Notes under the pieces: generated by a model
Databases searched by the model: none
Seen by the model: the letters and a program-made list of their open reading frames with translations, nothing else
What the model was told of the DNA's origin: nothing
Made by a program: the position numbers and the translations under genes
From: a candidate division FCPU426 bacterium
GTDB lineage: Bacteria > Oederibacteriota > Muellerivitia > Muellerivitales > Muellerivitaceae
NCBI GenBank assembly: GCA_963771075.1
Contig: CAVYSE010000018.1
Coordinates: 108,551-172,550, forward strand
Direction of reading: 5' to 3'
DNA: 64,000 bases
Shown: piece after piece, positions 1-55,759 of the stretch
Numbering within the stretch: position 1 is the first letter of the stretch
Layout: every line of letters begins with the position of its first letter

Positions 1-1
1 C

Positions 2-7545: not shown

Positions 7546-7576
7546 AAGCAAATCCCACAAACCCATCCCCTGAAAA

Positions 7577-8506: not shown

Positions 8507-8542
8507 AAAACAATATATCCGGGGAATAGAAGGGAGCGGGTC

Positions 8543-8893: not shown

Positions 8894-8926
8894 GCGCCAA
8901 CTCGGAAAGAAACGATCGAATCAATC

Positions 8927-10522: not shown

Positions 10523-10656
10523 AAAACACCTCCTGCGCTTGATACGAATAGGTTAGGGAAGGAGGATTAAATAACTGTAACGAATCCCAAAATGATTAGT
10601 TACAATGGCGTCGGTTCGGGAAAAATCGCCCACTTTTTTGCGTCCACAGGCTGAAA

Positions 10657-17337: not shown

Positions 17338-17419
17338 AGGGTAGGGCCCTTGTTTGGGGGGGCCGGGGGGAATAAACTGAGGAAGATACAGGGTGATCGC
17401 AAGGCTCAAGGGGACGCGG

Positions 17420-35748: not shown

Positions 35749-38700
35749 TTGGGCCATCAATTTTTATCGAATCGGATGGGCAAAAAAAACTATTCCTTAT
35801 TTATTTCCGCCCTGTTGGCGATACCCCTCTCTTTTTTTCCAAGCGACCTTCATTCCCAAACCTATATCGGTAACCAGAGCGTCGTGGACAGCACTTATTT
35901 TAATGGTGTTCAATCCTCCCTGTTGCCAGCGATTTCCTACCGCTTTACGATTCCCGGAACCAACACGCTTCCGGTGACCGCGATCTATTTGAACGCGGCT
36001 TCCAACTATACAAGTGCTTCTTCCTCGGGTAATTATGTCATCAGCGTACAAAACGATTCCTCCGGGTTTCCCGGAGCGACCACGATCGTGGGTCCGGTGA
36101 CGGTCACTTTTCCGCCGAGCGGTGGTCCCGTTTCATTTGATTGGTATGAAATAGATGTTCCTCAAGCATCCGTCTCCGGCGGAACGGTTTACCAATTGGT
36201 GGTTGACGGGTCGGGCATTACAACGAATAAATTCATGGATTTCACATCGGGTTCGCTTCCGGACCTTAAGATCATACCCTTGAATCAGGTCCCGGACCCC
36301 AATTGCGACTCCGTGACATTCAGCGGAAGTGTTTGGAATTCCCAAGCGGAAATGCCTGTTTTTGTTCTCCAATTTAACAGTAACGCCACCCCCGATTTTG
36401 GAAACCCCTATGACAATTACGATCCCGCGAATTACGCGGATGCTACCGACTCGACGGGTCAAGTTTTTAATACGGGAGGCTCGAATTTATTTGTGGACCG
36501 GTTAGGGGTATATGCCAATCGCTTGACGAACCCGGCGGATAATCTTTATGGTTCCGTTTACGACCTCACAGCCCATGTGACGGTGGGAGCCGTCACGATA
36601 TTGGAGTCAAACGTGAATACCTTCAACGCGTGGGCGGAGGCAAATTTCAGCCCCCCCCTTTCCCTCAATGGCGCACACAATTACGAGGTGTTGCTTACGT
36701 CTCCCGGGTCCGCCTCCGCCACCGATTTTTATTATTTCCCGGCGCCTTTTCACGGAGGTACTTTTGACGACCTGACCTATGGAAGCACCCAGTCTTATGC
36801 CGAGTACAACTCTAACTATCCGACTCCTATCATGACCCCTGAGCCCTTCGAGGACCTGGGGTTCAGGTTCAGAGTGTTTATGACATTGACTCCCTCGGTT
36901 ACTCCAACGCTAACCCCAACCCCGACTTTAACATCAACTTCGACTCCTACAACCACGCCTACCGTAACGGCAACCCCCACCGTGACTTACGCCCCCTTTA
37001 ACGGTTCCATCTTCTATTTCACGAATGGTGATTCCACCAACCCGGGGCCTCCGGTCCAGGTCTTCAGCAATTCGGCCCCGGCTTCCCTCGTGACCGTTAA
37101 TATTTCCTCGGCGGGCAACAGTACCGCCTCCCCGTTGGGCGCTTGGGTCTCGGAGCCGCTTAATGGGCCGACCATCCCCGCCGGAAATTGGGATTTCGCC
37201 TTATATGGGTACGCGGATACCGCCGGTGCTAACGTTTATTACGACGTGAAAGTTTATGATTATTCTCTTTCCGGGCCCACCACCACCCTTTTATTTGAAA
37301 GTGTATCCCCCATCCAAATTTCCACTTCTCCCAACACTTTGGTGGAATGGTTTGCCAGCCAACCAAGCTATACCTTGGGCGTGCGGGACAAGATCTTTGT
37401 GCAGGTTTCGGTCAATAATACCTCCGCCACCACCTCGAACGCTTTTTTCCAATATGGGGGTAACCCCGATTATTCGCGTATCACGGCACCGGGGTATGGC
37501 ACGGGCGCCGCGGACAAGTTTGGAAATCGGTCGATCATCGGGGGACCTGTAACCTTCGGGCTGGATGCGAACGCTAAACGGGTCGGGATGCGGTTCACGG
37601 CGAATACCACCGGCTCCATTTCGGCGGTTCAGGTCTATATGTACAGTTTGTTGGGAGTTCCGGGTTATAAGGTCTCCCTCCAGGGGGACTCCGCTGGCAT
37701 TCCCGACGGATACCTGACATCCCCCACCAGTTTCACCCCGATTTCGGGATGGAACAATATCAGCCTTTCTACCTCCGTCCCCGTCACGGCGGGGGGAACT
37801 TATAACCTGGTAGTGGAATGGGATGGCCTATCCGTTCTTTCCTCGAACAACGCGATCCTTTTGAGCGGAACCTCCCCGGATCATGGATATATCCCCGTAA
37901 GCCAAACCTTTAGCGGGGTTTTGGGAACCGTGCAGGACATGGGCTTGGGCGGGGGGTGGAGTCCCTTGAGCGTCATGCCGGTTTTCCTGGTTGATTTAAA
38001 CGGCGCATGGTTTGGGAACCCCTTGGTAAACTCGGGCGGCAGTAGCATCGTGGGGACCAATTACCTAGCCCAACGGTTCAGGGTATTAAGTACGCCCCTG
38101 ACCATCGCCTCGGTGGCGGCTTTTGTCCAAGAAGTAGGGGGCACCCCGCCATTGGACAGTTTGTACTGGGAAATACGGGACACTACCACCAATACCGTTC
38201 AACCCGGCGGATCCGGAACCTTGGCGACCAATAACCAAGTCACCACGACAGCCAATTGGATCGGCGGGGCGATACCCACCCTGATCCTCGCGCCCGGAAC
38301 CTATCGGTTAGTTCTCAAGAGCCCCCAGTCCTCAGGCGGGAACTATTATTTTTGGCCGGCCCAGGGCCCTATGTCGACTGTCTCTCCTTATACCGATACA
38401 ACCTATGATGGGGTCAATTCCTACTCTGAAATTTCCAGCGATGGAGGAAACACCTTCGGCACTATCTCGCCTTCGCTCAATTACGATTTCGGTTTTGATT
38501 TCGTTCCCGGAACCAGCACCCTGGCTACTTACACTCCGAGCGTGACTCCCACAAGCACCGCCACCCAAACGCCCTCGATTACCAGCACCCCGACGCCGAC
38601 CCTCACCAATACCATTACGCTCAGCCCCACCATTACGAATACCTTCACGATCACTCCGACCCTGTCCAATACGACCACGCTCACGCCGACCATTACCCTT

Positions 38701-39579
38701 TCTCCCACCATCACCCTGTCGCCGACTGTTACTTTGACACCGACAATAACGCTGACTCGGACGATTACGAATACTTACACCAATACCATCACTCTCACAC
38801 CCACGATTACGCTCACTCGGACGATAACAAATACCTATACCCCCACCCCTACCCTGACCCCGACCATTACGAGCACCCTTTCACTCACGCCGACGATTAC
38901 CACCACTTTTACGCTCACCCCGACGGTCACGAATACATTCACCCACACTCCATCGCTTACGCCAACCGTAACAAATACCGAAACTTACACGATAACGCTT
39001 ACCCCAACCGTCACAACCACCTTTACGAGTACCATCACACTTACTCCCACCGTGACGAATACCATTACCAGTACCATCACTCCTACTCCAACCAATACCA
39101 GCTCAATGACCATTACCCCCACCCTTACGAATACCCCGACTGAATCCTTCACCCCAACCTTGACGAGTACCTCCACCCAAACAGCCACCCTTACCTTTAG
39201 CCCCACCGTCACCCACTCCCCGACCATCACGAACACGCCGACCCTAACGCTTTCTCCGACCCCAACAGGAAGTCCCACCAATACACCAACTCCGAATATG
39301 GCGATGTACCTGTCGGATAATTATTTCAACCCGGCGGCGGGCGCAACCCTGGGGATCGACGTTCTCATTACGCAAAGCGGGGAAGTGAAGATCATGGTTT
39401 ATAACCTGTTGGGAGAAGAGGTGGTCAAGCTGGTAGACCAGAATCTCAATGTAGGAAGTTACCATTTCACCTGGGACGGGCGTAATCGTTCGCAAGATCT
39501 GGTTGGGAATGGTGTTTATTTGGTGCTAATAGAACAGGCTTCCGGGAATTTCATCCGAAAAGTCATCGTCTTGAAATAA
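35749..39579 (+). CDS. Large secreted protein with four related beta-sandwich-like modules (DUF4082-like pattern), two Thr/Pro-rich linkers and a FlgD-Ig/T9SS-like C-terminal domain.
   Basis: TTG start with GAGGAGAG 4 nt upstream, and a signal peptide (LFISALLAIPLSFF). Modules are marked by YRFTIPG..VTAIYLN..GGTVYQLVVDG, GQVFNTG..VDRLGVYAN..HNYEVLLTS, GMRFTAN..ISAVQVYMY..GGTYNLVVEWDG and AQRFRVL..IASVAAFVQ..PGTYRLVLKS. The C-terminal domain reads KIMVYNLLGEEVVKLVDQ..YHFTWDGRNRSQDLVGNGVYLVLIE..IRKVIVLK. Confidence 0.8.
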   Translation: MGHQFLSNRMGKKNYSLFISALLAIPLSFFPSDLHSQTYIGNQSVVDSTYFNGVQSSLLPAISYRFTIPGTNTLPVTAIYLNAASNYTSASSSGNYVISVQNDSSGFPGATTIVGPVTVTFPPSGGPVSFDWYEIDVPQASVSGGTVYQLVVDGSGITTNKFMDFTSGSLPDLKIIPLNQVPDPNCDSVTFSGSVWNSQAEMPVFVLQFNSNATPDFGNPYDNYDPANYADATDSTGQVFNTGGSNLFVDRLGVYANRLTNPADNLYGSVYDLTAHVTVGAVTILESNVNTFNAWAEANFSPPLSLNGAHNYEVLLTSPGSASATDFYYFPAPFHGGTFDDLTYGSTQSYAEYNSNYPTPIMTPEPFEDLGFRFRVFMTLTPSVTPTLTPTPTLTSTSTPTTTPTVTATPTVTYAPFNGSIFYFTNGDSTNPGPPVQVFSNSAPASLVTVNISSAGNSTASPLGAWVSEPLNGPTIPAGNWDFALYGYADTAGANVYYDVKVYDYSLSGPTTTLLFESVSPIQISTSPNTLVEWFASQPSYTLGVRDKIFVQVSVNNTSATTSNAFFQYGGNPDYSRITAPGYGTGAADKFGNRSIIGGPVTFGLDANAKRVGMRFTANTTGSISAVQVYMYSLLGVPGYKVSLQGDSAGIPDGYLTSPTSFTPISGWNNISLSTSVPVTAGGTYNLVVEWDGLSVLSSNNAILLSGTSPDHGYIPVSQTFSGVLGTVQDMGLGGGWSPLSVMPVFLVDLNGAWFGNPLVNSGGSSIVGTNYLAQRFRVLSTPLTIASVAAFVQEVGGTPPLDSLYWEIRDTTTNTVQPGGSGTLATNNQVTTTANWIGGAIPTLILAPGTYRLVLKSPQSSGGNYYFWPAQGPMSTVSPYTDTTYDGVNSYSEISSDGGNTFGTISPSLNYDFGFDFVPGTSTLATYTPSVTPTSTATQTPSITSTPTPTLTNTITLSPTITNTFTITPTLSNTTTLTPTITLSPTITLSPTVTLTPTITLTRTITNTYTNTITLTPTITLTRTITNTYTPTPTLTPTITSTLSLTPTITTTFTLTPTVTNTFTHTPSLTPTVTNTETYTITLTPTVTTTFTSTITLTPTVTNTITSTITPTPTNTSSMTITPTLTNTPTESFTPTLTSTSTQTATLTFSPTVTHSPTITNTPTLTLSPTPTGSPTNTPTPNMAMYLSDNYFNPAAGATLGIDVLITQSGEVKIMVYNLLGEEVVKLVDQNLNVGSYHFTWDGRNRSQDLVGNGVYLVLIEQASGNFIRKVIVLK

Positions 39580-39679
39580 TGCCGGGTTTGAAGACCCATT
39601 TCAGGGTTTTTCTTTTTCAGGGTTCCATCCTGCTCCAATGGCTATAATCCTTTTAATTTCCATCGTGTCAGGGGGTTTT

Positions 39680-42951: not shown

Positions 42952-44625
42952 ATGAAAATTTGGATTTATCTCATCGCGTTCCTTTTGACGAGTTTGACCT
43001 ACGGACAAAATGGACAAGTTCCAACCACCCAGGGAAAACCGCTTTTCGTACCCGGCGAAGTCCTGGTCCGTCTCAAGGAGAATACGGCAGGTGCGGATAA
43101 AGCCCGCCTATTGGGGGCAAAAGCCCATGCCGCCCCATCGGAACTCAAGGGGGTCTACCGTCTTGAATTGGAGGCGGGGGAAGATGTCCAAGCCCGCGTG
43201 GAAGAATTAAAAAAAGATCCGGCGGTGGACCTGGTCCAACCCAATTATTGCTATTACGCCTCATCCGCTCCCGCCTCCTGCAGCCCGAACGTCCTTAATT
43301 TCGCTACGCCAGAATATTGGCCCTTGACGATCATTCAAGCTCCCCAAGCATGGGCGACGATCAACGGAAGCTGCTCGCCCCTTTTACTAGGCGCCGGTGT
43401 GACCGTGGCGGTGTTGGATACGGGAGTTTCGGTGACCCATCCAGGTTTGACGGGAGTCAGCGTTTCAGGGTCAGTGACGAACAGTGTTTCCGGGGGTATC
43501 AATACCGCCGATGATTACGGCCATGGAACCTACGTCGCGGGTATCCTGGCCGGTCAATGGAACGCCAATGGGATGGCGGGATTGGCTCCCGGCATTACCC
43601 TCATGCCGATCAAGGTATTGGACCATTGCGGTAAGGGTAATTCGGACGAGATCGCCGCGGGAACAATCTTTGCGGTGAACCATGGGGCTCGAGTCCTTAA
43701 TTTTTCACTCGGCGGTCCGGGTCAAGACGACCTGGAACAGGAAGCCATTGACCAGGCCCTTTCCGCCGGTTGCGTGGTGGTGGCGGCGTCGGGAAACGAA
43801 TCAAACCTGCCGGGTACCCTTGCCCCACTGAATTACCCGGCGGCCTATCCCGGTGTGCTTTCCGTGGGAGCCAGTGACGAAAACGACCATGTGGCACCCT
43901 ATTCGAACGGCGGCACTGGGTTAGAAATGGTGGCCCCCGGTGGAACCTATTCGGGATTACCTGCACCTAGCCCGAGTAATTTTTCCTTATTCGCATCCCA
44001 GTTGATTTTCAGCACGATTCTTGACCCGAGCGCTCCTCTCTGCGCGCCCGTGACCCAATCCGATTTTATACTAGACCCGGCAAATCCCTTGTATGGCGTA
44101 GCGGCCGGCACCTCCGCCGCCACTCCTTTTGTTTCCGCTACCGCAGCTTTGTTGTTTTCGGTTCATCCCGACATGACGAATAACCAGGTAGTCAATGCCA
44201 TCGTCAATAACACTGAAAGTCTCAATGGGAATACCGGATGGGACGCTGAAACCGGCTATGGCCGCTTGAATGTCTACCAAGCCCTTCTCAACGCCCAAAA
44301 CTCAACTGGGAAAATCACGCCTTTTCTCAAAACCTTCAACTATCCCAACCCCTTTTATCCTGACATGACGCCCTCCATCACCATCACGGTGCCCCTGGCT
44401 TCGTCCCAGATGGTTGAATTGACCATCAGGGATTCGGGTGGAAAATTGGTTTTTCACGAAATCACCCCGGCCCTTCCGCAATTTAAATCCTTCGGTATCA
44501 CTTGGGACGGGCGGAACTCCACGGGCCAATTGGTCACGACTGGAATATATTTTTATACCGTGACTGCGGGCGGGGTGACGGGCCACAATAAGATCGTCGT
44601 GGTACGCGGAAGCACGAGCCCATGA
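42952..44625 (+). CDS. Secreted S8 (subtilisin-family) serine protease with a FlgD-Ig/T9SS-like C-terminal domain.
   Basis: Signal peptide, an inhibitor-I9-like propeptide (VPGEVLVRLKE...VEELKKDPAVDLVQPN) and the catalytic triad contexts VAVLDTGV, HGTYVAGI and GTSAATPFVSATAALL. The C-terminal domain reads NYPNPFYPD..VELTIRDSGGKLVF..ITWDGRNSTGQLVTTGIYFYTV..NKIVVVR. Confidence 0.88.
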   Translation: MKIWIYLIAFLLTSLTYGQNGQVPTTQGKPLFVPGEVLVRLKENTAGADKARLLGAKAHAAPSELKGVYRLELEAGEDVQARVEELKKDPAVDLVQPNYCYYASSAPASCSPNVLNFATPEYWPLTIIQAPQAWATINGSCSPLLLGAGVTVAVLDTGVSVTHPGLTGVSVSGSVTNSVSGGINTADDYGHGTYVAGILAGQWNANGMAGLAPGITLMPIKVLDHCGKGNSDEIAAGTIFAVNHGARVLNFSLGGPGQDDLEQEAIDQALSAGCVVVAASGNESNLPGTLAPLNYPAAYPGVLSVGASDENDHVAPYSNGGTGLEMVAPGGTYSGLPAPSPSNFSLFASQLIFSTILDPSAPLCAPVTQSDFILDPANPLYGVAAGTSAATPFVSATAALLFSVHPDMTNNQVVNAIVNNTESLNGNTGWDAETGYGRLNVYQALLNAQNSTGKITPFLKTFNYPNPFYPDMTPSITITVPLASSQMVELTIRDSGGKLVFHEITPALPQFKSFGITWDGRNSTGQLVTTGIYFYTVTAGGVTGHNKIVVVRGSTSP

Positions 44626-45617
44626 AAAAGCTTCTTCCGGGTTGGTTTCTAATGTTTTTATTTGCATTTAGGTGTTTTTTACCCTCCGGTGCCTTTGCCT
44701 CGGGGGGCCAACGCCCAAATGCCTATACCGAATATGGCGTAGGGGGGGCGCCGGAAGCCATGGCCGGGGCCGCGGTCGGGTTAAGGAACGATCCGTCTTG
44801 CGGTTTTTGGAACCCGGCGGGTTTAACCGCCGTCAAGAATATTCAAATCGAGGCGCAGAACAGCTTCCTATCCCTCAATCAATCCCTTGATTACTACTCT
44901 TTCAGCGCAAACCTCCAAGACTCGGTCTATTGCGGGTTGTCCCTATTGGCCTATAGCGCCGGAAATGACTTGGAGGTCCGAAATGGAAATTCCATGAACC
45001 CAGACAGCATCCTGAGCGACGCGGAATACACCGGTCTCCTATCAGGCGCATTCCGTTTGAGCCCCCATTGGGCGGGGGGCTTCAATTTGAAACTTCTCCT
45101 GAATAATCTGGGAAACGTTCAAAGTGCGAATGGAACTGGTTTTGGCTTTGACACGGGGCTTCAGTACCGGGTCGATAACGACACGACCATTGGGCTGGTG
45201 GTCCAGGATCCCTATACGGTTTTCACCTATCAAGATTCTTTCTCGACCGTGATTCCCACAACATTCCGGTGGGGGATGAACCGGCGGGAAGAGTCTTTGC
45301 GGGGAAACTGGGCCTTTGACCTGGAATGGAGCCAAGACCTGGGTTTCCAACCGCGCCTTGGGGCCGAATGGTTTCCCTTTGAGGTGCTCGCCTTGCGGGC
45401 TGGAGTTTGGGCGGGAGGCTTGAATTCAGGTGATAACGGAGTCGGCCCGACCCTCAATTTGACTTGCGGTCTCGGGATTTTAATACCGCTTCGAAAATCT
45501 TTTGTCCCTCGGCAATCTGGCGTGGATCAAATTATCATCGATTATTCATTGATTCCCGATCCCCAACAGCCGGGAGCGGTCTTGAATCAAATCGCGGCAT
45601 CGGGCAAATTTATGTAA
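44622..45617 (+). CDS. PorV/PorQ/UPF0164-like outer-membrane beta-barrel (barrel only).
   Basis: The ATG overlaps the protease stop (ATGA). Signal peptide, GGAPEAMAGAAVGLRNDPSCGFWNPAGL and alternating beta-strand patterns. The late LALRAGVW and IIIDYSL segments resemble the corresponding parts of the other two barrels. Confidence 0.65.
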   Translation: MKKLLPGWFLMFLFAFRCFLPSGAFASGGQRPNAYTEYGVGGAPEAMAGAAVGLRNDPSCGFWNPAGLTAVKNIQIEAQNSFLSLNQSLDYYSFSANLQDSVYCGLSLLAYSAGNDLEVRNGNSMNPDSILSDAEYTGLLSGAFRLSPHWAGGFNLKLLLNNLGNVQSANGTGFGFDTGLQYRVDNDTTIGLVVQDPYTVFTYQDSFSTVIPTTFRWGMNRREESLRGNWAFDLEWSQDLGFQPRLGAEWFPFEVLALRAGVWAGGLNSGDNGVGPTLNLTCGLGILIPLRKSFVPRQSGVDQIIIDYSLIPDPQQPGAVLNQIAASGKFM

Positions 45618-45621
45618 TCCG

Positions 45622-46491
45622 ATGGTTCTCGGCCGGACATTTTTAATAATGAATTGGAAAAAAGTCATGTCTCAACCAAATTCGTTAAAACAACAATTGG
45701 AAACCTGCCGGAGACTAGGCATCCGGTATTTGTCCATGCCCAAAGAGAACCCTTCCTCCGGAGGCGTCGGGCAATCAGACCGGACGCCCCTGGATCAAGA
45801 AGGCCTCAAAAACCACCCAGCGGTAAAGGCTATCCCGAAACCTGAATTAAATGCCCCCTCTTCCCCGACAAGGCGTTCTTTGAAAATGCTTTCCCGGGAT
45901 TCATGGATGACCCTGAACCAGGACAGCGTGGAGGGGATGGAACTAACCGCGTACGAAGCGGATATCCACGATTGTCAAAACTGCGCCCTTGGTGCGACCC
46001 GAACCCGGTTCGTTTTCGGGAGCGGCAACCCAAAAGCGGAGGTGATGTTTGTGGGGGAGGCTCCAGGGGCGGATGAGGATGCCCAGGGTTTACCCTTTGT
46101 CGGACGAGCTGGACAACTTTTGACCAAGATTATCGAGTCCACTAAAACCTGGAAAAGGGAGGAGGTATTCATTTGCAATGTGTTGAAATGCCGGCCTCCG
46201 GGAAACCGCACTCCCTTGCCGGAGGAAGTCGAGCACTGCAGGCCTTACCTTGAGGAACAGGTCCGCATCATCAAGCCCAAACTGATTATGGCGCTGGGGG
46301 CCAGCGCCGCCCAGGCGCTTTTGTCCACCAAAGAGCCGGTTGGAAAACTTCGTAACCGATGGCATGATTATTCGGGTATTCCACTCAGGGTCACTTACCA
46401 TCCTGCTGCTTTATTAAGGTTTGAGGGATATAAGAAGGATGTTTGGGCTGATATGAAGGAATTTTCAACGAAATACGGGTTAATTAAATGA
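45622..46491 (+). CDS. Uracil-DNA glycosylase, family 4, with an N-terminal extension of about 100 aa.
   Basis: [62 protein letters not shown] and TYHPAALLR. Confidence 0.88.
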
Positions 46492-46586
46492 AAATAAGAG
46501 CTTCAAGGGGAATTATTGTTTGCCGTTAAACCTGTATAATCCGGTGAAAATAAATTCCCCATTCTTCTAATGAACGGTAAGTCTCA

Positions 46587-49500
46587 ATGATGTGCAATAA
46601 ATGGAAATTTAAATCTGCTTTGGCATTAATATTCGTGTTCATTGTCACGCCCTCTGTTTTCGCGGATTGCCTTGTTTCGGATCAATTTAACAATGAAATC
46701 CTTCCGGCTTGGACAGCGCTCGATATTGGTACCGCCTCACTTGGTGTTACCTCTGTCGGTTCAGTCCTAACCATGACCAGCAATGACCCCGGTATGCCCG
46801 GCGGCGGGGGAACCACTTCGGATTCATTTTATTATCTTTATCAATCTTCCACTGGTGATCCGGAGGTTACACTCCAAATCGATTCGATGCCGGCCGCCAC
46901 CGGGGGCCGATTGGGGATCATGTTCCGAAATGGTATCCCGCCCGGGGATGTTTTCGCCTATGTTTTTGCCGCGACGACCGGGGCGGGCACGGGAAGTTTT
47001 AATACCATGTATAGGAATCCCGCGAATACCGGCAACCAAACATTAGGTACAGCGGCTGGGAATTGGACAACCGCGACTCTTCCGGTTTATGTACGGATGT
47101 CGAAGGCGGGCACGAATTTTGACGCTTATTTCTCGAACGACGGGAATACCTGGACGAGGTTTGCCAACATTGGCGTTGCAGGATTTACCGCATCTCCCTA
47201 TTTGGTGGGCATAGCCCTGGCTTCAGCGAATAATGTAGCGCCGGGCGACACAGGTTCGGTCGAAGATTTTAGCGTCATATCGGGTTACTGTACCCAAACC
47301 AACACACCGACTTTTTCCAGTACGACTACCCCGACCCAGACCCCCACACTCACGCCGACGATCACGAATACCGTGACCCTGACTCCGACGGTGACCTTGA
47401 CACCGACTGAGAGCTACACGATCACGCTTACGCCGACGATCACCGATACCGTGACCTTGACGCCAACGATCACGAATACGGAAACCCTGACTCCGACCAT
47501 CACGCCGACCTTCACGGCTACACCCACGGTAACGATGACCTATACGGTGACCCAGACGCCGCCGGTACTCAATATAGTTCGTGTGACGCCACCCGTGGAT
47601 GCGACGGTGATACCGGGAAGCCAGGGAGTGTCGGTGGTTCAAGTGAAAGTCAGCAACAACGATGGGGAGGGAGTGAACCTCAATTACGTGGTATTGCAGG
47701 CGACAGGGACGGGGGATTCGTTGCCGGTTAACGTCACGGCGGTGAATTTGTACAAGGGCTCAACCTTGTTGGCAAGTTCGACCTATTCGGGGACGTCGCC
47801 GAACGAATATGTCACCCTGGGAGGATTCCCGTTGGATGGGATAGGGGCGGGGTTATCGCAGAATTACATGATTACGTATGATTTCGCGGGTGGAGCGGGG
47901 TTGGGGACCTATGGGATGAACGTGGTTGGAGCGGGGGGGGTGGGACAAAGTACGGGACAACTGGTCCAGTTAACGGGGGTGCCGTTTGCGGGGGCAACGA
48001 TCATGGTGGCGGCGGCGACTCCCACACCAACCTTTACGGCGACGAGCAGTTTCACCTCTACATCGACCTGGACGGGTACCTCGACGCCGACGATCACCCT
48101 GACTCCGACGGTGACCCTGACGCCGACCCCGAGCTACACGATCACGCTTACCCCAACGATCACGAACACGGTGACCCTAACTCCGACGGTGACCTTGACG
48201 CCGACTGAGAGCTACACGATCACACTCACGCCGACGATCACGAATACCGTGACCCTGACCCCGACGGTGACTTTGACACCGACTGAGAGCTACACGATCA
48301 CGCTTACGCCGACGATCACCGATACCGTGACCTTGACGCCAACGATCACGAATACGGAAACCCTGACTCCGACCATCACGCCAACCTTCACGGCTACACC
48401 CACGGTAACGATGACCTATACGGTGACCCAGACGCCGCCGGTACTCAATATAGTTCGTGTGACGCCACCCGTGGATGCGACGGTGATACCGGGAAGCCAG
48501 GGAGTGTCGGTGGTTCAAGTGAAAGTCAGCAACAACGATGGGGAGGGAGTGAACCTCAATTACGTGGTATTGCAGGCGACAGGGACGGGGGAATCGTTGC
48601 CGGTTAACGTCACGGCGGTGAATTTGTACAAGGGCTCAACCTTGTTGGCAAGTTCGACCTATTCGGGGACGTCGCCGAACGAATATGTCACCCTGGGAGG
48701 ATTCCCGTTGGATGGGATAGGGGCGGGGTTATCGCAGAATTACATGATTACGTATGATTTCGCGGGTGGAGCGGGGTTGGGGACCTATGGGATGAACGTG
48801 GTTGGAGCGGGGGGGGTGGGACAAAGTACGGGACAACTGGTCCAGTTAACGGGGGTGCCGTTTGCGGGGGCAACGATCATGGTGGCGGCGGCGACTCCCA
48901 CACCAACCTTTACGGCGACGAGCAGTTTCACCTCTACATCGACCTGGACGGGTACCTCGACGCCGACGATCACCCTGACTCCGACGGTGACCCTGACGCC
49001 GACCCCGAGCTACACGATCACGCTTACCCCAACGATCACGAACACGGTGACCCTAACTCCGACGGTGACCTTGACGCCGACTGAGAGCTACACGATCACA
49101 CTCACGCCGACGATCACGAATACCGTGACCCTGACCCCGACGGTGACCTTGACACCGACTGAGAGCTACACGATCACACTTACGCCGACGATCACCGATA
49201 CCGTGACCTTGACGCCAACGATCACGAATACGGAAACCCTGACTCCGACCATCACGCCAACCTTCACGGCTACACCCACGGTAACGATGACCTATACGGT
49301 GACCCAGACGCCGCCGGTACTCAATATAGTTCGTGTGACGCCACCCGTGGATACGACGGTGATACCGGGAAGCCAGGGAGTGTCGGTGGTTCAAGTGAAA
49401 GTCAGCAACAACGATGGGGAGGGAGTGAACCTCAGTTACGTGATATTGCAGGCGACAGGGACGGGGGAATCGTTGCCGGTTAACGTCACGGCGGTGAATT

Positions 49501-52500
49501 TGTACAAGGGCTCAACCTTGTTGGCAAGTTCGACCTATTCGGGGACGTCGCCGAACGAATATGTCACCCTGGGAGGATTCCCGTTGGATGGGATAGGGGC
49601 GGGGTTATCGCAGAATTACATGATTACGTATGATTTCGCGGGTGGAGCGGGGTTGGGGACCTATGGGATGAACGTGGTTGGAGCGGGGGGGGTGGGACAA
49701 AGTACGGGACAACTGGTCCAGTTAACGGGGGTGCCGTTTGCGGGGGCAACGATCATGGTGGCGGCGGCGACTCCCACACCAACCTTTACGGCGACGAGCA
49801 GTTTCACCTCTACATCGACCTGGACGGGTACCTCGACGCCGACGATCACCCTGACTCCGACGGTGACCCTGACGCCGACCCCGAGCTACACGATCACGCT
49901 TACCCCAACGATCACGAACACGGTGACCCTAACTCCGACGGTGACCTTGACGCCGACTGAGAGCTACACGATCACACTCACGCCGACGATCACGAATACC
50001 GTGACCCTGACTCCAACAGTGACCTTGACGCCGACTGAGAGCTACACGATCACACTTACGCCGACGATCACCGATACCGTGACCTTGACGCCAACGATCA
50101 CGAATACGGAAACCCTGACTCCGACCATCACGCCAACCTTCACGGCTACACCCACGGTAACGATGACCTATACGGTGACCCAGACGCCGCCGGTACTCAA
50201 TATAGTTCGTGTGACGCCACCCGTGGATACGACGGTGATACCGGGAAGCCAGGGAGTGTCGGTGGTTCAAGTGAAAGTCAGCAACAACGATGGGGAGGGA
50301 GTAAACCTCAGTTACGTGATATTGCAGGCGACAGGGACGGGGGAATCGTTGCCGGTTAACGTCACGGCGGTGAATTTGTACAAGGGATCAACCTTGTTGG
50401 CAAGTTCGACCTATTCGGGGACGTCGCCGAACGAATATGTCACCCTGGGAGGATTCCCGTTGGATGGGATAGGGGCGGGGTTATCGCAGAATTACATGAT
50501 TACGTATGATTTCGCGGGTGGAGCGGGGTTGGGGACCTATGGGATGAACGTGGTTGGAGCGGGGGGGGTGGGACAAAGTACGGGACAACTGGTCCAGTTA
50601 ACGGGGGTGCCGTTTGCGGGGGCAACGATCATGGTGGCGGCGGCGACTCCCACACCAACCTTTACGGCGACGAGCAGTTTCACCTCTACATCGACCTGGA
50701 CGGGAACACCGACACCGACCATCACCCTGACACCGACGATCACCAATACCGTGACCTTAACCCCAACGATCACGAATACGGTGACCCTGACTCCGACAAT
50801 CACGAACACGGTGACCCTGACTCCAACAGTGACCCTGACACCGACGATCACCAATACCGTGACCTTAACCCCGACAATCACCAACACGGTGACCTTGACG
50901 CCGACAATCACGAATACAGTGACGAATACGCCGACCTTTACGCCGACCGTGACAAGCACTTGGACCTCGACCACGACTCCGACGGTGACTCCGACGGTGG
51001 GGCTGGCCTTGTCGTGGAACAATCTGCCCTCGCCGCAGAACTATTTGTTTAACCAGATAAACGTATCGAGTCTGCAGTTCGTATTGACGTCGACGGCGCA
51101 GGAGAATGTGCTGGTGAAACAGCTGGTGTTCACGGGCGGCGGGAGCGTGGGCTGGACCGGGGATGTGGTGGCGGGGAGCGTGAGGTTGTACCAGGACAAT
51201 TCACCGGGTTCCAATGGGTTGTATAACGCCGCCGATACGCTGTTGCTGGGAAGCCAAACCTTTGACTCAACGGGAGCGGTGACATTCACGAGCCTGTCGG
51301 GATTGACAAGCCTGGCGTCGGGAGCGCCGCAAACCTTCCTGCTGGTGTTTGACCTGAACATGGGGGGATTGGCGAGCAAGACTTTTGACAACGGGCTGGC
51401 CTTGGGAGGGATCACGGCGAACGGCCAGACGACGGGGCAGGGGGCGATCCTGACAGGTGCGAACATCACGGGGAAAACGCATACGATTTCACCGGTAACA
51501 GCCACGCCGACTTCCACGAATACGGTTACGCTCACGCCGACGACCACCAATACCGTAACCTTGACCCCGACGATCACGAACACAGTAACCCTGACTCCGA
51601 CGGTGACCTTGACGCCGACGATCACCAATACCGTGACCTTGACCCCGACGATCACGAACACGGTGACCCTGACACCGACGATCACCAATACCGTGACCTT
51701 AACCCCGACAATCACCAACACGGTGACCTTGACGCCGACAATCACGAACACGGTGACGAATACGCCGACCTTTACGCCGACCGTGACAAGCACTTGGACC
51801 TCGACCACGACTCCGACGGTGACTCCGACGGTGGGGCTGGCCTTGTCGTGGAACAACCTGCCCTCGCCGCAGAACTATTTGTATGACCAGGTTAACGTAT
51901 CGAGTCTGCAGTTCGTATTGACGTCGACGGCGCAGGAGAATGTGCTGGTGAAACAGCTGGTGTTCACGGGCGGTGGGAGCGTGGGCTGGACCGGGGATGT
52001 GGTGGCGGGGAGCGTGAGGTTGTACCAGGACTCGTCCTTGAACGGCTTGTATTCGGTTGGGGCCGATACCCTTTTGTTGGGAGGACAAAGCTTCAATGGA
52101 TCAGGTTCCGTGACCTTTCAAAACCCGAACGGAGTTACGGCTCCGTTGGTGTCGGGCATGCCGCAAACCTTCCTGCTGGTGTTTGATCTGAACATGGGGG
52201 GATTGGCGAGCAAGACTTTTGACAACGGGCTGGCCTTGGGAGGGATCACGGCGAACGGCCAGACGACGGGGCAGGGGGCGATCCTGGCAGGTGCCGACAT
52301 CACGGGGAAAACGCATACGATTTCACCGGTAACAGCCACGCCGACAGCGACCACCACCTTTACAACCACAGCGACTTCGACCGATACCATCACACCCACG
52401 CCGTCGGTCACGCAAACTCACACATCCACATTTACCTTCACCGAGACCCCGACTCCGACCCTTACCTTGACCTTTACCTCGACCTTCACGCCAACCGAGA

Positions 52501-54110
52501 CGGCCACGGCAACCTTTACCCCAACGCCGACTAATACGTCCACCTATACCGCGACATCTACCGCTTCTTTTACGGCTACCTTCACGCCAACCTTCACCTT
52601 CACGGTCACTCCCACACCCACCTTTACCATTCAGCCGCCTTCTTCCATCGTCGTCCTGCCCCAAACCGCCCCCGTAACGGCAGGGGGATATGCCTCGGTG
52701 ACCTTGGAGGTGTTAAATGGAGCAGGACAACCGGCTACCCTTGAAACGGCGATGACATTGAGTCTGAATTCAAACTCGACCGGAGAAAATGCCATTTGGT
52801 TGTCTCCATCGTCGAGTGGCACGACAATCAACTCCGTTAATTTTACGTCTGGGAGCGTCGCTCAAACCTTGGTTTATTACAGGGATGATCTAGCCGGGAA
52901 TTGGACTCTCACCGCATCTTCCTTCAACCTTGCTTATGGGACCATTAATGTGATTCCGGGCGCATTTATGAGCTTGCAAGTATTGCTGCCGGGTCAAACC
53001 GCCGATCCTGGTCATCCAACCGCGGATCCAATTGGAATACTGGGTAATCCTTCATCCGCTGTCGCAGGTTCCCCGGTTCAAGTTACGCTGAACGCGGTGG
53101 ACGCCTATTTCAACCGGGTTTTATCTATTGACGATCCATTAACCTTGACCCTCACCGATCCCGCGGCCCCGGCTGGCGGGACCGTGAATCTTTCGGGTGG
53201 AACGGCAATAAAACCTGTAACTTTTTATTCCCCTGGCAACCAAGCTGTCACTGCCACGGATACGGTTACTGGCCCCAAGACGGGTTCCAGCGGTTTATTA
53301 ACGATCCTGGGGGGGACAGCCAGCACCCTATTGGACATCGTTCATAATTCGCCAATCCTTTCCGGCGAAGGGTTGGGTGCGGTGGGTGTGACTTTCATGA
53401 ATTTCAAATTATCCGTTCAAAGCGGACAAAACCCGATCCGATTGGATAGCCTCACCCTGCATGCCAGGGATTCCTACGGCAATGATGTGCCCTTAGACAC
53501 CGCCTTTCAAAACCTTAAACTTATTTCCGGCCCACAAATTTTCATTTTGCCTCTGTCCTCAGTCAATACCGGGATCGTGAGTCTCGCTCCTTTGTCCGCT
53601 GGCATTACTTTTGACGTGGCAGCCGCCTCTCCCATCACCTTGAACCTGACGGGGGATATATCCTCCACCGCGACCGCCAGAAACATATCCCTTTCGGTGG
53701 ATGCTTCCGCCTCAGTCGTGGCGCATGATCCCGTTTCAGCAGTTTCGGCGGCGGTTGTGGCGACGGGAGATCCCACTGGGTTCCCTATGGTCTCAGGCTT
53801 GCTTGTATTGGAGCCTTCGGATGTATCTAAAACTTATGGAAATTATCCTAATCCCTTCCGTCCGGGGATCGAAAACACGACTATTGAATTTTATTTACCC
53901 GCGCCCTCCTCCGTTTCGTTGATTTTGTACGATGTGTTAGGAAACAAGGTTTTAACCCTTTTGAAAGGCCAAAACCTACCTACGGGCCTACAGCGCTTAG
54001 TTTGGGACGGCCGTAACGGTTCAGGTGCCCCGGTGATTAGCGGTATTTATTACGCCCAACTTACGGTAAATGGGACAAGCTACCTAGTGAAAGTGGCGGT
54101 GGTCCGATGA
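46587..54110 (+). CDS. Giant (2507 aa) secreted adhesin-like protein. Contains an N-terminal lectin/LamG-like domain, 4 near-identical Ig-like modules, 2 modules of a second type, further Ig-like regions and a FlgD-Ig/T9SS-like C-terminal domain.
   Basis: Signal peptide (LALIFVFIVTPSVFA). The N-terminal domain carries YVRMSKAGTNFDAYFSNDGNTWTRF. Repeated modules PVLNIVRVTPPVD...GATIMVAAATPT are separated by TPT linkers. Two modules read VGLALSWNNLPSPQNYL...GKTHTISPVTATPT. The C-terminal domain reads NYPNPFRPG..VSLILYDVLGNKVLTLL..LVWDGRNGSGAPVISGIYYAQL..VKVAVVR. Confidence 0.9.
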   Translation: MMCNKWKFKSALALIFVFIVTPSVFADCLVSDQFNNEILPAWTALDIGTASLGVTSVGSVLTMTSNDPGMPGGGGTTSDSFYYLYQSSTGDPEVTLQIDSMPAATGGRLGIMFRNGIPPGDVFAYVFAATTGAGTGSFNTMYRNPANTGNQTLGTAAGNWTTATLPVYVRMSKAGTNFDAYFSNDGNTWTRFANIGVAGFTASPYLVGIALASANNVAPGDTGSVEDFSVISGYCTQTNTPTFSSTTTPTQTPTLTPTITNTVTLTPTVTLTPTESYTITLTPTITDTVTLTPTITNTETLTPTITPTFTATPTVTMTYTVTQTPPVLNIVRVTPPVDATVIPGSQGVSVVQVKVSNNDGEGVNLNYVVLQATGTGDSLPVNVTAVNLYKGSTLLASSTYSGTSPNEYVTLGGFPLDGIGAGLSQNYMITYDFAGGAGLGTYGMNVVGAGGVGQSTGQLVQLTGVPFAGATIMVAAATPTPTFTATSSFTSTSTWTGTSTPTITLTPTVTLTPTPSYTITLTPTITNTVTLTPTVTLTPTESYTITLTPTITNTVTLTPTVTLTPTESYTITLTPTITDTVTLTPTITNTETLTPTITPTFTATPTVTMTYTVTQTPPVLNIVRVTPPVDATVIPGSQGVSVVQVKVSNNDGEGVNLNYVVLQATGTGESLPVNVTAVNLYKGSTLLASSTYSGTSPNEYVTLGGFPLDGIGAGLSQNYMITYDFAGGAGLGTYGMNVVGAGGVGQSTGQLVQLTGVPFAGATIMVAAATPTPTFTATSSFTSTSTWTGTSTPTITLTPTVTLTPTPSYTITLTPTITNTVTLTPTVTLTPTESYTITLTPTITNTVTLTPTVTLTPTESYTITLTPTITDTVTLTPTITNTETLTPTITPTFTATPTVTMTYTVTQTPPVLNIVRVTPPVDTTVIPGSQGVSVVQVKVSNNDGEGVNLSYVILQATGTGESLPVNVTAVNLYKGSTLLASSTYSGTSPNEYVTLGGFPLDGIGAGLSQNYMITYDFAGGAGLGTYGMNVVGAGGVGQSTGQLVQLTGVPFAGATIMVAAATPTPTFTATSSFTSTSTWTGTSTPTITLTPTVTLTPTPSYTITLTPTITNTVTLTPTVTLTPTESYTITLTPTITNTVTLTPTVTLTPTESYTITLTPTITDTVTLTPTITNTETLTPTITPTFTATPTVTMTYTVTQTPPVLNIVRVTPPVDTTVIPGSQGVSVVQVKVSNNDGEGVNLSYVILQATGTGESLPVNVTAVNLYKGSTLLASSTYSGTSPNEYVTLGGFPLDGIGAGLSQNYMITYDFAGGAGLGTYGMNVVGAGGVGQSTGQLVQLTGVPFAGATIMVAAATPTPTFTATSSFTSTSTWTGTPTPTITLTPTITNTVTLTPTITNTVTLTPTITNTVTLTPTVTLTPTITNTVTLTPTITNTVTLTPTITNTVTNTPTFTPTVTSTWTSTTTPTVTPTVGLALSWNNLPSPQNYLFNQINVSSLQFVLTSTAQENVLVKQLVFTGGGSVGWTGDVVAGSVRLYQDNSPGSNGLYNAADTLLLGSQTFDSTGAVTFTSLSGLTSLASGAPQTFLLVFDLNMGGLASKTFDNGLALGGITANGQTTGQGAILTGANITGKTHTISPVTATPTSTNTVTLTPTTTNTVTLTPTITNTVTLTPTVTLTPTITNTVTLTPTITNTVTLTPTITNTVTLTPTITNTVTLTPTITNTVTNTPTFTPTVTSTWTSTTTPTVTPTVGLALSWNNLPSPQNYLYDQVNVSSLQFVLTSTAQENVLVKQLVFTGGGSVGWTGDVVAGSVRLYQDSSLNGLYSVGADTLLLGGQSFNGSGSVTFQNPNGVTAPLVSGMPQTFLLVFDLNMGGLASKTFDNGLALGGITANGQTTGQGAILAGADITGKTHTISPVTATPTATTTFTTTATSTDTITPTPSVTQTHTSTFTFTETPTPTLTLTFTSTFTPTETATATFTPTPTNTSTYTATSTASFTATFTPTFTFTVTPTPTFTIQPPSSIVVLPQTAPVTAGGYASVTLEVLNGAGQPATLETAMTLSLNSNSTGENAIWLSPSSSGTTINSVNFTSGSVAQTLVYYRDDLAGNWTLTASSFNLAYGTINVIPGAFMSLQVLLPGQTADPGHPTADPIGILGNPSSAVAGSPVQVTLNAVDAYFNRVLSIDDPLTLTLTDPAAPAGGTVNLSGGTAIKPVTFYSPGNQAVTATDTVTGPKTGSSGLLTILGGTASTLLDIVHNSPILSGEGLGAVGVTFMNFKLSVQSGQNPIRLDSLTLHARDSYGNDVPLDTAFQNLKLISGPQIFILPLSSVNTGIVSLAPLSAGITFDVAAASPITLNLTGDISSTATARNISLSVDASASVVAHDPVSAVSAAVVATGDPTGFPMVSGLLVLEPSDVSKTYGNYPNPFRPGIENTTIEFYLPAPSSVSLILYDVLGNKVLTLLKGQNLPTGLQRLVWDGRNGSGAPVISGIYYAQLTVNGTSYLVKVAVVR
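47345..50705. repeat. Near-identical 876-bp (292-aa) in-frame tandem repeat, about 3.8 copies.
   Basis: caccgactgagagctacacgatcacgcttacg occurs at 47401 and 48277 (offset 876). Antisense ORF sets at 47223/48177/49053/49929 and 47909/48785/49661/50537 repeat at 876 bp. Only a handful of substitutions between copies are visible (for example GDS vs GES, NLNYVV vs NLSYVI). Confidence 0.92.
50710..52345. repeat. 834-bp (278-aa) in-frame tandem repeat, 2 copies, more diverged than the 876-bp array.
   Basis: atcaccaataccgtgaccttaaccccgacaatcaccaacacgg occurs at ~50849 and ~51683, and cacggggaaaacgcatacgatttcaccggtaacagccacgccgac at 51467 and 52301 (offset 834 in both cases). Confidence 0.88.
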
Positions 54111-55759
54111 AGACACTGTTCCTTTACATTTTGACCGGCTTTTACACCCTATTCTTCCTAGGGACGGGGGTCCCCATGGTTTGGGGCCAAAGCGCCGAAA
54201 CCGGAGGAATGGTCGACCCGTTCGAATTGGGTGCGTCGGCCAGGGTCCTGGCCATGGGTGATGCTGGTGTGGCCTTGGCCGGGGATGGTGGAGCGGCCCT
54301 TCTCAACCCGGCATTGCTGGCGACCGTCAACCAGAATGATCTCCTGATGTTCCATGCGCCTCTTTTTATCGACACGCTTTATGACAGCGTCGGTTTTGTC
54401 CAACCTCTTACGGGATCCTCCGGCTTTGCCCTGAGTCTTTCGCGTTTGGGGATCGATAATATTTTGCAAACCCAAAACAATATCGTGGCGGTATCCACTT
54501 TCTCGACCCAAGAATGGGAGGCGACCCTAAGCCTGGGGGCGGAGGTTGTACCCGGCTTGGGTATGGGAATCCAGATGAAAGGAATTCAAGAGCAAATCTC
54601 CCTTTACCAAGGGGAGGGCGTAGGGATGGACGCCGGGTTGATTTATCGGTTCGCCCAATCCGAATCGGACTATTCCAAAATCGGACTTCCAAACCTCGTT
54701 CTCGGTATCGCGGCCGTGAATCTTATTTCCCCTCAAATCACCCTTTATCAGACCGGCAGCCAGCCCTCTGAAATCATCAAACCTTCGGTGGGTTTTCTCT
54801 ATGATATCTCCCCTCACGGCGACCGGTTATGGCTTGCGATGGAGGGAGAGATGACCCAGGGAGGAAGCAATCTTGTAAAGGCGGGGGCCGAGTATACTTT
54901 TCAGGGCAATTTTTCCCTCAGGGCTGGGTTTGACGGGGTGAGTCCCACGGCTGGAGGAGGCGTGAGCTTGTCGGGTTTTGAGCTGGATTATGCCTACAAC
55001 CAAAGGGACTTGGGAACCCTTAACCGGTTGTCCCTATCCTACCGCTTCGGGGAATATATCGATCCGGTACAAGCCCAAAAAAGGGAGATGTTAAACGAAA
55101 GGCTGAGCCTGCTTAAATGGGTTGCCCAAAGCTACGAAAAGGACGAGGATTACGACGCCGCGATCAAAGCCTGGAACAATGTTTTAAAAGAATACCCCGA
55201 CGACGCCGAATCGTCCAAGTCCATCCAAAGTTTGAAGGACCGCCGCCATCAACAGGTGGAAGCCCTTATGAAACAAGCCCGTCCCGCCATGCAAAAAGGT
55301 GATTATGTGAGAGGAATACCCATTTTAGGAAAGGTGCTGGCTTTGGAGCCTGGCAATACCGAAGCCCGCAACATGCTTAAACACGTCGACCAGGGAAGGC
55401 AGTTGGAAACCGCTTATTTGGCCGGGGTCGAGGCTTACCGCCACGAAAATTACCGGGAAGCCATGGATTACCTGGAGGGCATTTACGACACCAATCCGGA
55501 TTACCGGGACGTGGCATTGCTCTACCGTGACGTCCAAAGCCGTATTCAGCCCCTGGAATCCCTTCCCAAGGACCTTTCCGATCTCTATGCCAAGGGTGTG
55601 GACGCTTACATGAAGGGCCAATATTCCGGGGCCATTTCCCTATGGCAGCAGGTCCTGGCCAAAGATCCTCGAAACCGGCTAGTGGCCAGGAACTTAGAAG
55701 AAGCCCGGGGCCACTTGGCCGATCCCACCCCCACACCCCAAGTGAAGAGTGCCCCTTGA
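54107..55759 (+). CDS. PorV/PorQ/UPF0164-like outer-membrane beta-barrel fused to a C-terminal TPR domain.
   Basis: The ATG overlaps the giant gene's stop (ATGA). Signal peptide, DPFELGASARVLAMGDAGVALAGDGGAALLNPALLA and the barrel end FELDYAYNQRDLGTLNRLSLSYRF. TPR-like units follow (YEKDEDYDAAIKAWNNVLKEYPDD, GDYVRGIPILGKVLALEPGN, ENYREAMDYLEGIYDTNPDY, GQYSGAISLWQQVLAKDPRN). Confidence 0.7.
   Translation: MKTLFLYILTGFYTLFFLGTGVPMVWGQSAETGGMVDPFELGASARVLAMGDAGVALAGDGGAALLNPALLATVNQNDLLMFHAPLFIDTLYDSVGFVQPLTGSSGFALSLSRLGIDNILQTQNNIVAVSTFSTQEWEATLSLGAEVVPGLGMGIQMKGIQEQISLYQGEGVGMDAGLIYRFAQSESDYSKIGLPNLVLGIAAVNLISPQITLYQTGSQPSEIIKPSVGFLYDISPHGDRLWLAMEGEMTQGGSNLVKAGAEYTFQGNFSLRAGFDGVSPTAGGGVSLSGFELDYAYNQRDLGTLNRLSLSYRFGEYIDPVQAQKREMLNERLSLLKWVAQSYEKDEDYDAAIKAWNNVLKEYPDDAESSKSIQSLKDRRHQQVEALMKQARPAMQKGDYVRGIPILGKVLALEPGNTEARNMLKHVDQGRQLETAYLAGVEAYRHENYREAMDYLEGIYDTNPDYRDVALLYRDVQSRIQPLESLPKDLSDLYAKGVDAYMKGQYSGAISLWQQVLAKDPRNRLVARNLEEARGHLADPTPTPQVKSAP

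Follow-up and report, generated by a model that had tools for sequence, protein, structure and literature searches.

Proteins with a type-A-like C-terminal domain are encoded in overlap with PorV/PorQ-family barrels in candidate division FCPU426

Genes and junctions of the cargo-barrel pairs

The stretch of DNA analyzed here, called the window in the following, comprises 64,000 nucleotides (nt) of a candidate division FCPU426 bacterium (assembly GCA_963771075.1, contig CAVYSE010000018.1, positions 108,551 to 172,550 of the forward strand). It carries three gene pairs in which a protein with a conserved domain at its C-terminus (C-terminal domain, CTD), termed cargo, is followed by a barrel of the family of PorV and PorQ, known from the secretion system of type IX (T9SS). 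As claimed in the original prediction, which was made from the sequence alone, four open reading frames (ORFs) ending at positions 5659, 39579, 44625 and 54110 encode such CTD proteins; the ORFs and their coordinates were recovered. All genes of the set lie on the + strand (Table 1). The range of 42952–55759 first proposed for the modules holds two of the three pairs, and the pair joined at 5656 lies outside it.

The junctions were read directly in the sequence. In each pair, the barrel start overlaps the cargo stop by 4 nt, as had been predicted from the tetranucleotides GTGA, ATGA and ATGA (CAGTGA at 5656, CCATGA at 44622 and CGATGA at 54107). The overlapping start is the sole one that gives a complete signal peptide, and this holds for each barrel; for barrel 1, translation from the following in-frame start (5755) would leave out the signal peptide.

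Table 1. Positions of the cargo and barrel genes in the window and, for comparison, of one pair from Poribacteria
Feature	Coordinates	Strand	Remarks
Cargo 1, giant secreted protein	32..5659	+	NHL, FlgD_ig; N-terminus truncated by window edge
Cargo 1 CTD	5351..5656	+	PF13860 38.9 bits; TIGR04183 18.1 bits, under cutoff
Barrel 1	5656..7545	+	Signal peptide; 14-strand PorV/PorQ barrel (about aa 27–296); three FN3-like modules
Cargo 2, 'orphan' CTD protein	35749..39579	+	DUF4082, Thr/Pro linkers; yicC next, no adjoining barrel
Cargo 3, secreted subtilisin-like S8 peptidase with CTD	42952..44625	+	PF00082 168.7 bits, PF22148, PF13860 31.2 bits
Barrel 2, PorV-like, 14-strand, no appendage	44622..45617	+	Conserved pairing with the S8 peptidase
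Cargo 4, 2507-aa repetitive surface protein	46587..54110	+	CTD 53781–54107; TIGR04183 32.9 bits
Barrel 3	54107..55759	+	PorV/PorQ-family barrel (about aa 40–320); C-terminal TPR (about aa 325–525)
Poribacteria pair (locus L021), cargo	3299–9868		
Poribacteria pair (locus L021), barrel	9893–10864		

The cargo proteins differ in build. Cargo 1, whose reading frame is open up to the first base of the window, consists of NHL repeats, beta-propeller-like repeats and a long Thr/Pro-rich linker in front of the CTD, and the linker is encoded by a tandem array of 8.4 copies of a 192-nt unit (3308–4864). The S8 peptidase (cargo 3) has a fervidolysin-type prodomain, the catalytic motifs DTG, HGT and GTSAA, and its CTD at about amino acids (aa) 460–550. 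Cargo 4 contains four 876-nt modules (47304–50231; 92–93% identity with the first copy, taken over a segment of 300 nt) and an 834-nt module that is present twice (50826–51959; 97% identical), with Thr/Pro linkers. The repeats of cargo 1 and cargo 4 are recent internal expansions, and their copy numbers in a short-read assembly may therefore be unreliable. Long antisense ORFs at 3677–4897 and 51041–51856 are by-products of the repetitive composition. A GC skew of about −0.16 over the cargo genes (1–8000 and 36001–40000) is due to C-rich Thr/Pro codons and is no replication signal.

Families of the C-terminal domains and the barrels

The four CTDs were assigned with family models. When the C-termini were scanned alone, all four passed the cutoff of PF13860 (FlgD_ig; 31.0–38.9 bits, cutoff 27); scans of the whole proteins gave lower scores for cargo 2 (24.4 bits) and cargo 4 (26.4 bits). 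With the type A model TIGR04183 (cutoff 23), cargo 2 (38.2 bits) and cargo 4 passed, and the S8 peptidase (22.3 bits) and cargo 1 stayed just under the cutoff. PF18962, also a type A model, remained below its cutoff for all four CTDs, each of which stands at the extreme C-terminus of its protein. Since the type-B model CHU_C (PF13585) gave 13.6–19.7 bits (cutoff 27) and TIGR04131 gave no match, membership in the type-B CTDs was rejected. The CTD of the S8 peptidase matched the CTD models of PorZ and PorU at 1e-6 and 1e-5, respectively.

PF13860, which is a fold-level family and not a functional one, was matched by 20/20 CTDs of relatives. A profile of 20 CTDs aligned end to end with PorU (6za2, residues 1054–1154, E = 6e-6) and PorZ (5m11, E = 2e-5), and with the CTDs of cleaved cargos over the last strand or strands only. 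The RgpB CTD was also matched by this profile in the PDB. Thus, the domain that the original prediction saw at all four C-termini is indeed shared, but the consensus it derived is loose: NYPNPF is found in two of the four CTDs, and the other two have LSxNxFN. The class to which the CTD of cargo 1 belongs, the partner class of FN3-bearing barrels, reads LSxNxFN ... WDG.DD.G...STGLYL ... KKVxVxK.

The barrels scored to the PorV/PorQ family and not to FadL, with two of the three above the cutoff of NF033709 (cutoff 90; barrel 1, 141.9; barrel 3, 97.1). The top NCBIfam model of barrel 2 was PorV2, far below the cutoff of 325; the PorV2 scores of the barrels were 43–62 bits. The PorP/SprF models of NCBIfam and Pfam were matched by none of the three barrels at E ≤ 0.1, and an identity as PorP/SprF, the type-B shuttles, was rejected for lack of a model match. 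A profile of the barrel 2 orthologues and the other two barrels, searched against the PDB, found PorV of F. johnsoniae (6h3i_F) at E = 1.4e-20; TodX was matched at 1e-4 and only in the N-terminal hatch. In the scan with the family models, BamG matched the barrels only at E = 0.042. The AlphaFold2 (AF2) model of barrel 2 (pLDDT 81) returned PorV structures as the top Foldseek matches (8gl6_F and 6h3i_F, TM 0.64), with FadL a close second. The entry 8gl6_F comes from a substrate-bound T9SS translocon.

The barrels carry a signal peptide, as predicted. Their N-terminal motif ending in NPAGL, which the original prediction had listed, proved to be the NPA hatch motif of the FadL superfamily ('delta NPA' mutants of FadL are among the PDB matches); it is a mark of the superfamily and is not specific to PorV. 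The appendages were found as described, namely three FN3-like modules on barrel 1, none on barrel 2 and a TPR domain, named by Pfam, on barrel 3. In the AF2 model of barrel 1 (pLDDT 80), 14 strands are followed by beta-sandwich modules at residues 311–393, 417–500 and 519–601, the first of which is named fn3 by Pfam (residues 309–389).

C-terminal periplasmic fusions also occur in metagenomic PorV-like barrels (P0095, P0096, P0098, P0107, P0125, P0130, P0106 and P0108), where the modules comprise OmpA-like peptidoglycan-binding domains, internal FlgD_ig repeats, TPR and Thr/Pro linkers. These fusions suggest that many PorV-like barrels connect the outer membrane with the cell wall, an arrangement reminiscent of PorP-PorE. 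P0095 and P0130 were considered as 'Rosetta-stone' fusions of CTD and barrel, and this was rejected: their Ig domains are internal periplasmic spacers in front of an OmpA domain and not terminal CTDs, and are thus no evidence that a CTD binds a barrel.

Conservation of the pairing in relatives and other phyla

Hidden Markov models, based on the CTDs of the window and on the alignment of the barrels, were run on the stop-to-stop ORFs of all retrieved loci. The closest loci belong to candidate division FCPU426 (44–74% identity to barrel 2) and to one metagenome-assembled genome (MAG) of Firestonebacteria. FCPU426 is listed as a separate candidate phylum in the NCBI taxonomy and has been grouped with Goldbacteria, beside Firestonebacteria and Elusimicrobia (PMC7031533). 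This placement puts the source organism outside Bacteroidota.

A CTD-ending ORF lies directly upstream of 30 of the 31 evaluable FCPU426/Firestonebacteria barrels. Thus, the pairing goes far beyond chance, and a coincidental adjacency, which the original prediction had allowed for, was refuted. Wherever the 5' flank is intact, FCPU426-group loci show the S8 peptidase with its CTD followed by barrel 2, in a constant synteny of YicC-Gmk-(RpoZ)-CoaBC-S8-barrel-UDG. A cargo 4-like gene followed by a TPR barrel recurs in five loci (L005, L006, L010, L011 and L016), and upstream of all five barrel 1 orthologues (30–64% identity) lies a CTD ORF whose end overlaps the barrel gene by 4 nt. Adjacency and overlap are kept down to 30–50% identity in all three barrel classes, the overlap being ATGA or GTGA, or the 1-nt form TAATG, at nearly all junctions.

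Besides adjacency, the sequences of the CTDs follow those of the barrels. Local alignment of the last 95 residues of the cargos gave means of 175–335 within a barrel class versus 50–100 between classes; hence, CTD sequence classes track barrel classes. The CTD of the orphan cargo 2 forms a separate conserved class in this comparison. The passengers of the barrel 1 class for the most part show no relation to each other (NHL propeller, L-type lectin, fn3 arrays), with one shared NHL region, and CTD and barrel are kept. Cargo 4 and barrel 3 are present or absent together between the UDG gene and the TPR/GltX genes in an otherwise syntenic backbone, and this pair is thus gained or lost as a unit. 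In these respects, that is, conserved adjacency and overlap, matching classes and joint gain or loss, the proposal of dedicated pairs was borne out.

Two further observations concern the gene structure around such pairs. Upstream of one barrel 1 orthologue (L085; 953-kb contig, 7841–10004), public annotation places three small genes on the minus strand, and the same stretch contains, on the + strand, an ORF of 720 aa that has a clear CTD and ends 4 nt into the barrel gene. The apparent barrel without upstream cargo was therefore rejected as an artefact of gene calling; automated annotation can overlook cargo genes rich in Thr/Pro. In two distant relatives (L087, 1–3047; L090, 1–3227), genes for proteins of about 1200 and about 370 aa precede the pair of fn3 cargo and barrel. 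The protein of about 1200 aa bears an N-terminal methylation motif of the type IV pilin kind, and these genes and the pair may form a larger conserved operon for a surface structure.

The pairing is also found in other phyla. In Poribacteria, 23 of 24 evaluable barrels were paired with a CTD ORF. The partner (L021–L077), seen in nearly all Poribacteria genomes sampled, is an Ig-repeat protein of 2000–3300 aa (Big_13, Big_5 and Big_3) encoded 24–180 nt upstream of the barrel (example in Table 1); its C-terminus matches the PorU CTD at 1.3e-13, and the barrel scores 138 bits on NF033709. Pairing was also seen in one Glassbacteria contig and in one unclassified MAG. In the other loci, mostly from Bacteroidota, 7 of 42 barrels had a neighbouring CTD-ending ORF, a count obtained with a strict CTD-end criterion that missed PorU2, whose type-A CTD lies about 40 aa from the end. 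The Bacteroidota barrel scanned (L065, 9853–16207) is PorV2 (NF052325), followed by PorU2 (NF052324), a putative sortase of about 1700 aa with a type-A CTD. Downstream ORFs of about 1700 aa with a CTD-like region near the C-terminus were present in several more loci of Chitinophagaceae, Hymenobacter and Flavobacteriales. A Zixibacteria contig (L092) shows the canonical order of a C25 PorU with CTD, then PorV and then a Por_Secre_tail protein.

These data bear on a reading in which the barrels are FadL-type channels for small molecules, or generic porins, and their adjacency to CTD genes is meaningless. Weak Pfam Toluene_X matches at the N-terminal hatch and the FadL structures ranking second in Foldseek speak for it. 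However, in the profile search PorV is preferred by 16 orders of magnitude, three paralogous classes and at least two phyla retain adjacency and overlap, and the CTD class co-varies with the barrel class. This reading is therefore largely refuted and considered extremely improbable, and an identity as FadL/TodX transporters was rejected on the profile and the conserved pairing.

The remaining genes of the window have housekeeping functions (the pyrimidine genes pyrK, pyrD, pyrF, pyrE, beta-oxidation, GroEL, a Bat/MoxR/VWA operon, YicC-Gmk-CoaBC, UDG and GltX). Downstream of barrel 3, ORF 55642–58170 encodes an RsbW-like anti-sigma kinase domain, HAMP and a SpoIIE/PP2C phosphatase domain, and its C-terminal region resembles the N-terminus (helix-turn-helix) of IS481 transposases. 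The listed start of this ORF, 118 nt inside barrel 3, probably lies too far upstream; among relatives, the gene is patchy and independent of the pair of cargo 4 and barrel 3. An AMP-binding (acyl-CoA synthetase-like) gene at 17393–19100 is broken up over two + strand ORFs that overlap and differ in frame, with ORF 17393–18802 covering positions 1–99 of the AMP-binding profile and ORF 18027–19100 covering positions 162–384 and the C-terminal domain. The break suggests a frameshift, be it that the gene is a pseudogene or that the assembly is in error.

Proposed role of the pairs and comparison with known systems

Taken together, the two-gene modules probably provide each CTD protein with a dedicated carrier, and probable anchor, in the form of its own barrel. 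The first gene would encode a Sec-exported surface protein or S8 protease with a beta-sandwich CTD of roughly 90 aa, and the second, translationally coupled through ATGA, GTGA or TAATG, a 14-strand PorV/PorQ outer membrane barrel. By homology, the extracellular face of the barrel is expected to bind the CTD of its own partner, and the gene overlap would lead to co-expression at a ratio of 1:1. The barrel would thereby act as carrier and probably as a permanent, non-covalent surface anchor, comparable to PorV-PorU, PorQ-PorZ and PorP/SprF with type-B adhesins; we infer binding, surface localisation and retention of the CTD from the sequence relationships. Since the C-terminus of an even-stranded barrel is periplasmic, the FN3 and TPR extensions of barrels 1 and 3 are predicted to lie in the periplasm, where they probably tether the complex to other components of the envelope. 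The outer membrane might be crossed through an SprA-like translocon encoded elsewhere in the genome, or by something else.

Several results weigh against dedicated carriers. Barrel 2 reached 62.3 bits on NF033709 and thus stays below the cutoff, and all three barrels stay under the equivalog cutoffs of PorV (NF033710), PorQ (NF033711) and PorV2 (NF052325), which are 250, 220 and 325, with best scores of 52.5, 66.4 and 62.4, respectively. Judged by these scores, the barrels are members of the family and not orthologues of PorV, PorQ or PorV2. Ig domains of the FlgD_ig kind are also found inside the PorV-like barrel fusions P0095 and P0130, as periplasmic modules, and a FlgD_ig match alone is therefore no proof of a secretion signal. 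The CTD protein cargo 2 of the window stands without a barrel, and so do the members of its class in L005, L019 and L009. Finally, the T9SS is described as exclusive to Bacteroidota (PMC12618676) and none of its core genes lies in the window, which leaves the translocation step without a candidate there.

The orphan class itself is conserved, with the consensus MYLSxNxFNP ... GNGVYLVLIEQxSGNxxRKVIVLK (L005, 1–5040; L019, 139–5065; L009, 2154–4572), and in some relatives its gene is flanked by the Bat/MoxR operon and yicC, while other relatives lack it. If the orphan has a barrel, the barrel gene must lie elsewhere, as is the case for the orphan type-B cargos of F. johnsoniae.

The question of translocation leads to the possibility that export is self-contained, i.e., that the PorV-like barrel, perhaps together with the β-barrel assembly machinery (BAM), would be the partner's own route across the outer membrane without SprA and PorKLMN (a system resembling two-partner secretion, or a 'proto-T9SS'). 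Strict 1:1 coupling and gain or loss as a unit would fit such a route, as would its occurrence in phyla for which no T9SS was reported in the literature searched. SprA, PorK/L/M/N, PorU and C25 peptidases were absent from the window proteins scanned, and no T9SS core gene was found in 20 kb around the Poribacteria pair or at the Zixibacteria contig end, stretches that cover small fractions of the genomes. However, the 14-strand FadL/PorV fold with its hatch is too narrow for a folded multi-domain cargo, PorV is not the pore in the solved T9SS structures, the search for core genes covered only the window and these flanks, and an orphan CTD protein lacks its own barrel. Self-contained export is thus regarded as quite unlikely.

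The S8 pair could, alternatively, be the counterpart of PorU-PorV in this lineage, i.e., a barrel-anchored surface protease that would cut off or process the CTDs of the other cargos. It is the sole pair present in every related genome and has a fixed neighbourhood of core genes, whereas the other pairs come and go. A peptidase with CTD followed by a barrel is also the gene order of porU-porV, the S8 CTD scores best to the CTDs of PorZ and PorU, and the best equivalog match of barrel 2 is PorV2, the neighbour of the putative sortase PorU2 in Bacteroidota. On the other hand, the S8 serine protease is unrelated to the C25 cysteine peptidase PorU, and subtilases with CTDs are also common among ordinary T9SS cargos. 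Such a sortase role is accordingly judged improbable. A wider view would combine these possibilities, with FCPU426, Firestonebacteria and Poribacteria having no SprA or PorKLMN, the modules being a free-standing, modular means of export and anchoring for giant surface proteins and thereby a minimal or ancestral form of type IX sorting, each barrel handling a single CTD class, and the S8 peptidase and its barrel taking the role of PorU-PorV. It is put forward tentatively and is rather doubtful, and the absence of the T9SS core from these genomes is in itself about equally doubtful.

Dedicated carriers are the preferred reading. In FCPU426/Firestonebacteria and in Poribacteria, thus in at least two unrelated candidate phyla, type-A-like CTDs are systematically linked one-to-one to private PorV-family barrels. 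Poribacteria are major symbionts of sponges, and their partner protein is the adhesin-like Ig-repeat protein of 2000–3300 aa. This linkage contrasts with the literature, in which type-A CTDs lead to a single PorV, private barrels serve type-B cargos only, and the T9SS is confined to Bacteroidota. A CTD-ending ORF followed by a barrel would provide a genomic rule for the main surface proteins of these uncultured bacteria, and the pairs offer natural sets of cognate and non-cognate partners for studying how PorV-like barrels read CTDs. If SprA and PorKLMN are encoded in these genomes, the modules would represent a T9SS with specialised type-A shuttles; if not, a free-standing system. Should the absence of the T9SS core prove true, they would point to how type IX sorting evolved.

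A private barrel per CTD protein is an established concept in Bacteroidota, as exemplified by porU-porV, PorZ-PorQ, type-B cargos with porP/sprF and PorV2/PorU2. Therefore, the claim that the arrangement was undescribed held for the form with type-A-like CTDs and PorV-family barrels and for the phyla concerned, but not for the principle, which has precedents in type-B/porP-sprF, PorU/PorZ and PorV2/PorU2. Not found described were type-A-like CTDs with several private PorV/PorQ-family barrels in parallel classes of one genome, translational coupling of type-A-like CTD cargo and barrel, periplasmic FN3 or TPR extensions of the barrel, and such pairs in FCPU426, Firestonebacteria or Poribacteria. 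The literature search returned no report of a T9SS or PorV for FCPU426, Firestonebacteria, Elusimicrobia or Poribacteria, and no publication on PorV2/PorU2, which is apparently a curated but unpublished second 'sorting system'.

Two-partner secretion (TPS), to which the pairs had been compared, shares the operon of cargo and barrel. In that system, however, the barrel TpsB is the translocator, has 16 strands, belongs to Omp85 and bears POTRA domains, and the cargo TpsA is marked by a TPS signal at its N-terminus. These features are missing here: the barrels have the 14-strand FadL/PorV fold with an N-terminal hatch, and Omp85, POTRA and TPS families gave no match among the window proteins scanned with NCBIfam and Pfam; the comparison is therefore not supported. 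In the BAM of Bacteroidota, a FadL-like barrel serves as platform for a surface protein and the BamG2-BamH2 genes form an operon (PMC12578637). BamG-BamH thus shares with the pairs here a barrel and a surface protein in one operon, and the relationship to BamG is limited to the weak match given above.

Type-B systems (F. johnsoniae SprB-SprF; P. gingivalis PG1035-PorP) have the barrel gene directly downstream of the gene of the CTD cargo, as seen here. Type-B cargos are described as 'commonly' having a cognate porP/sprF-like gene directly downstream that is needed for secretion, and some as orphans that share a shuttle (PMC12618676); type-B cargos remain bound to their PorP-like barrel (PMC9143113). 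Each type-B cargo depends on and stays with its own barrel, and orphans exist, as with cargo 2. In contrast, the CTDs here are type-A-like/FlgD-Ig, the barrels belong to PorV/PorQ, and the hosts are FCPU426 and Poribacteria, not Bacteroidota.

PorU-PorV and PorZ-PorQ belong to the attachment complex of the T9SS. On PorV and PorQ, respectively, the CTDs of PorU and PorZ are retained (PMC10202324; PMC12365241), and 'cognate PorV-like barrels' have been proposed to shield CTDs from cleavage (PMC10202324). A type-A CTD protein is held on the surface by a PorV-family barrel, as proposed for the type-A-like CTD proteins here; the window CTDs align best to those of PorU and PorZ, and porU immediately upstream of porV, as in Zixibacteria, is the same order as in the modules. 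The differences are that the modules pair their barrels with an S8 protease and giant repeat proteins instead of a C25 sortase or PorZ, that at least three parallel pairs lie in one genome region, and that two barrels bear FN3 or TPR extensions. In PorV2/PorU2, annotated as 'putative type IX sorting system', a PorV-family barrel likewise adjoins a large type-A CTD protein, but it precedes PorU2 in Bacteroidota, whereas the barrel follows the cargo here. With the general shuttle (SprA-PorV; 6H3I and 8GL6), the pairs share the fold and family of the barrel and probably also that a beta-sandwich CTD is recognised. A single PorV is used by all type-A cargos of Bacteroidota (PMC12618676), whereas in the modules described here a barrel is co-encoded for each CTD class.

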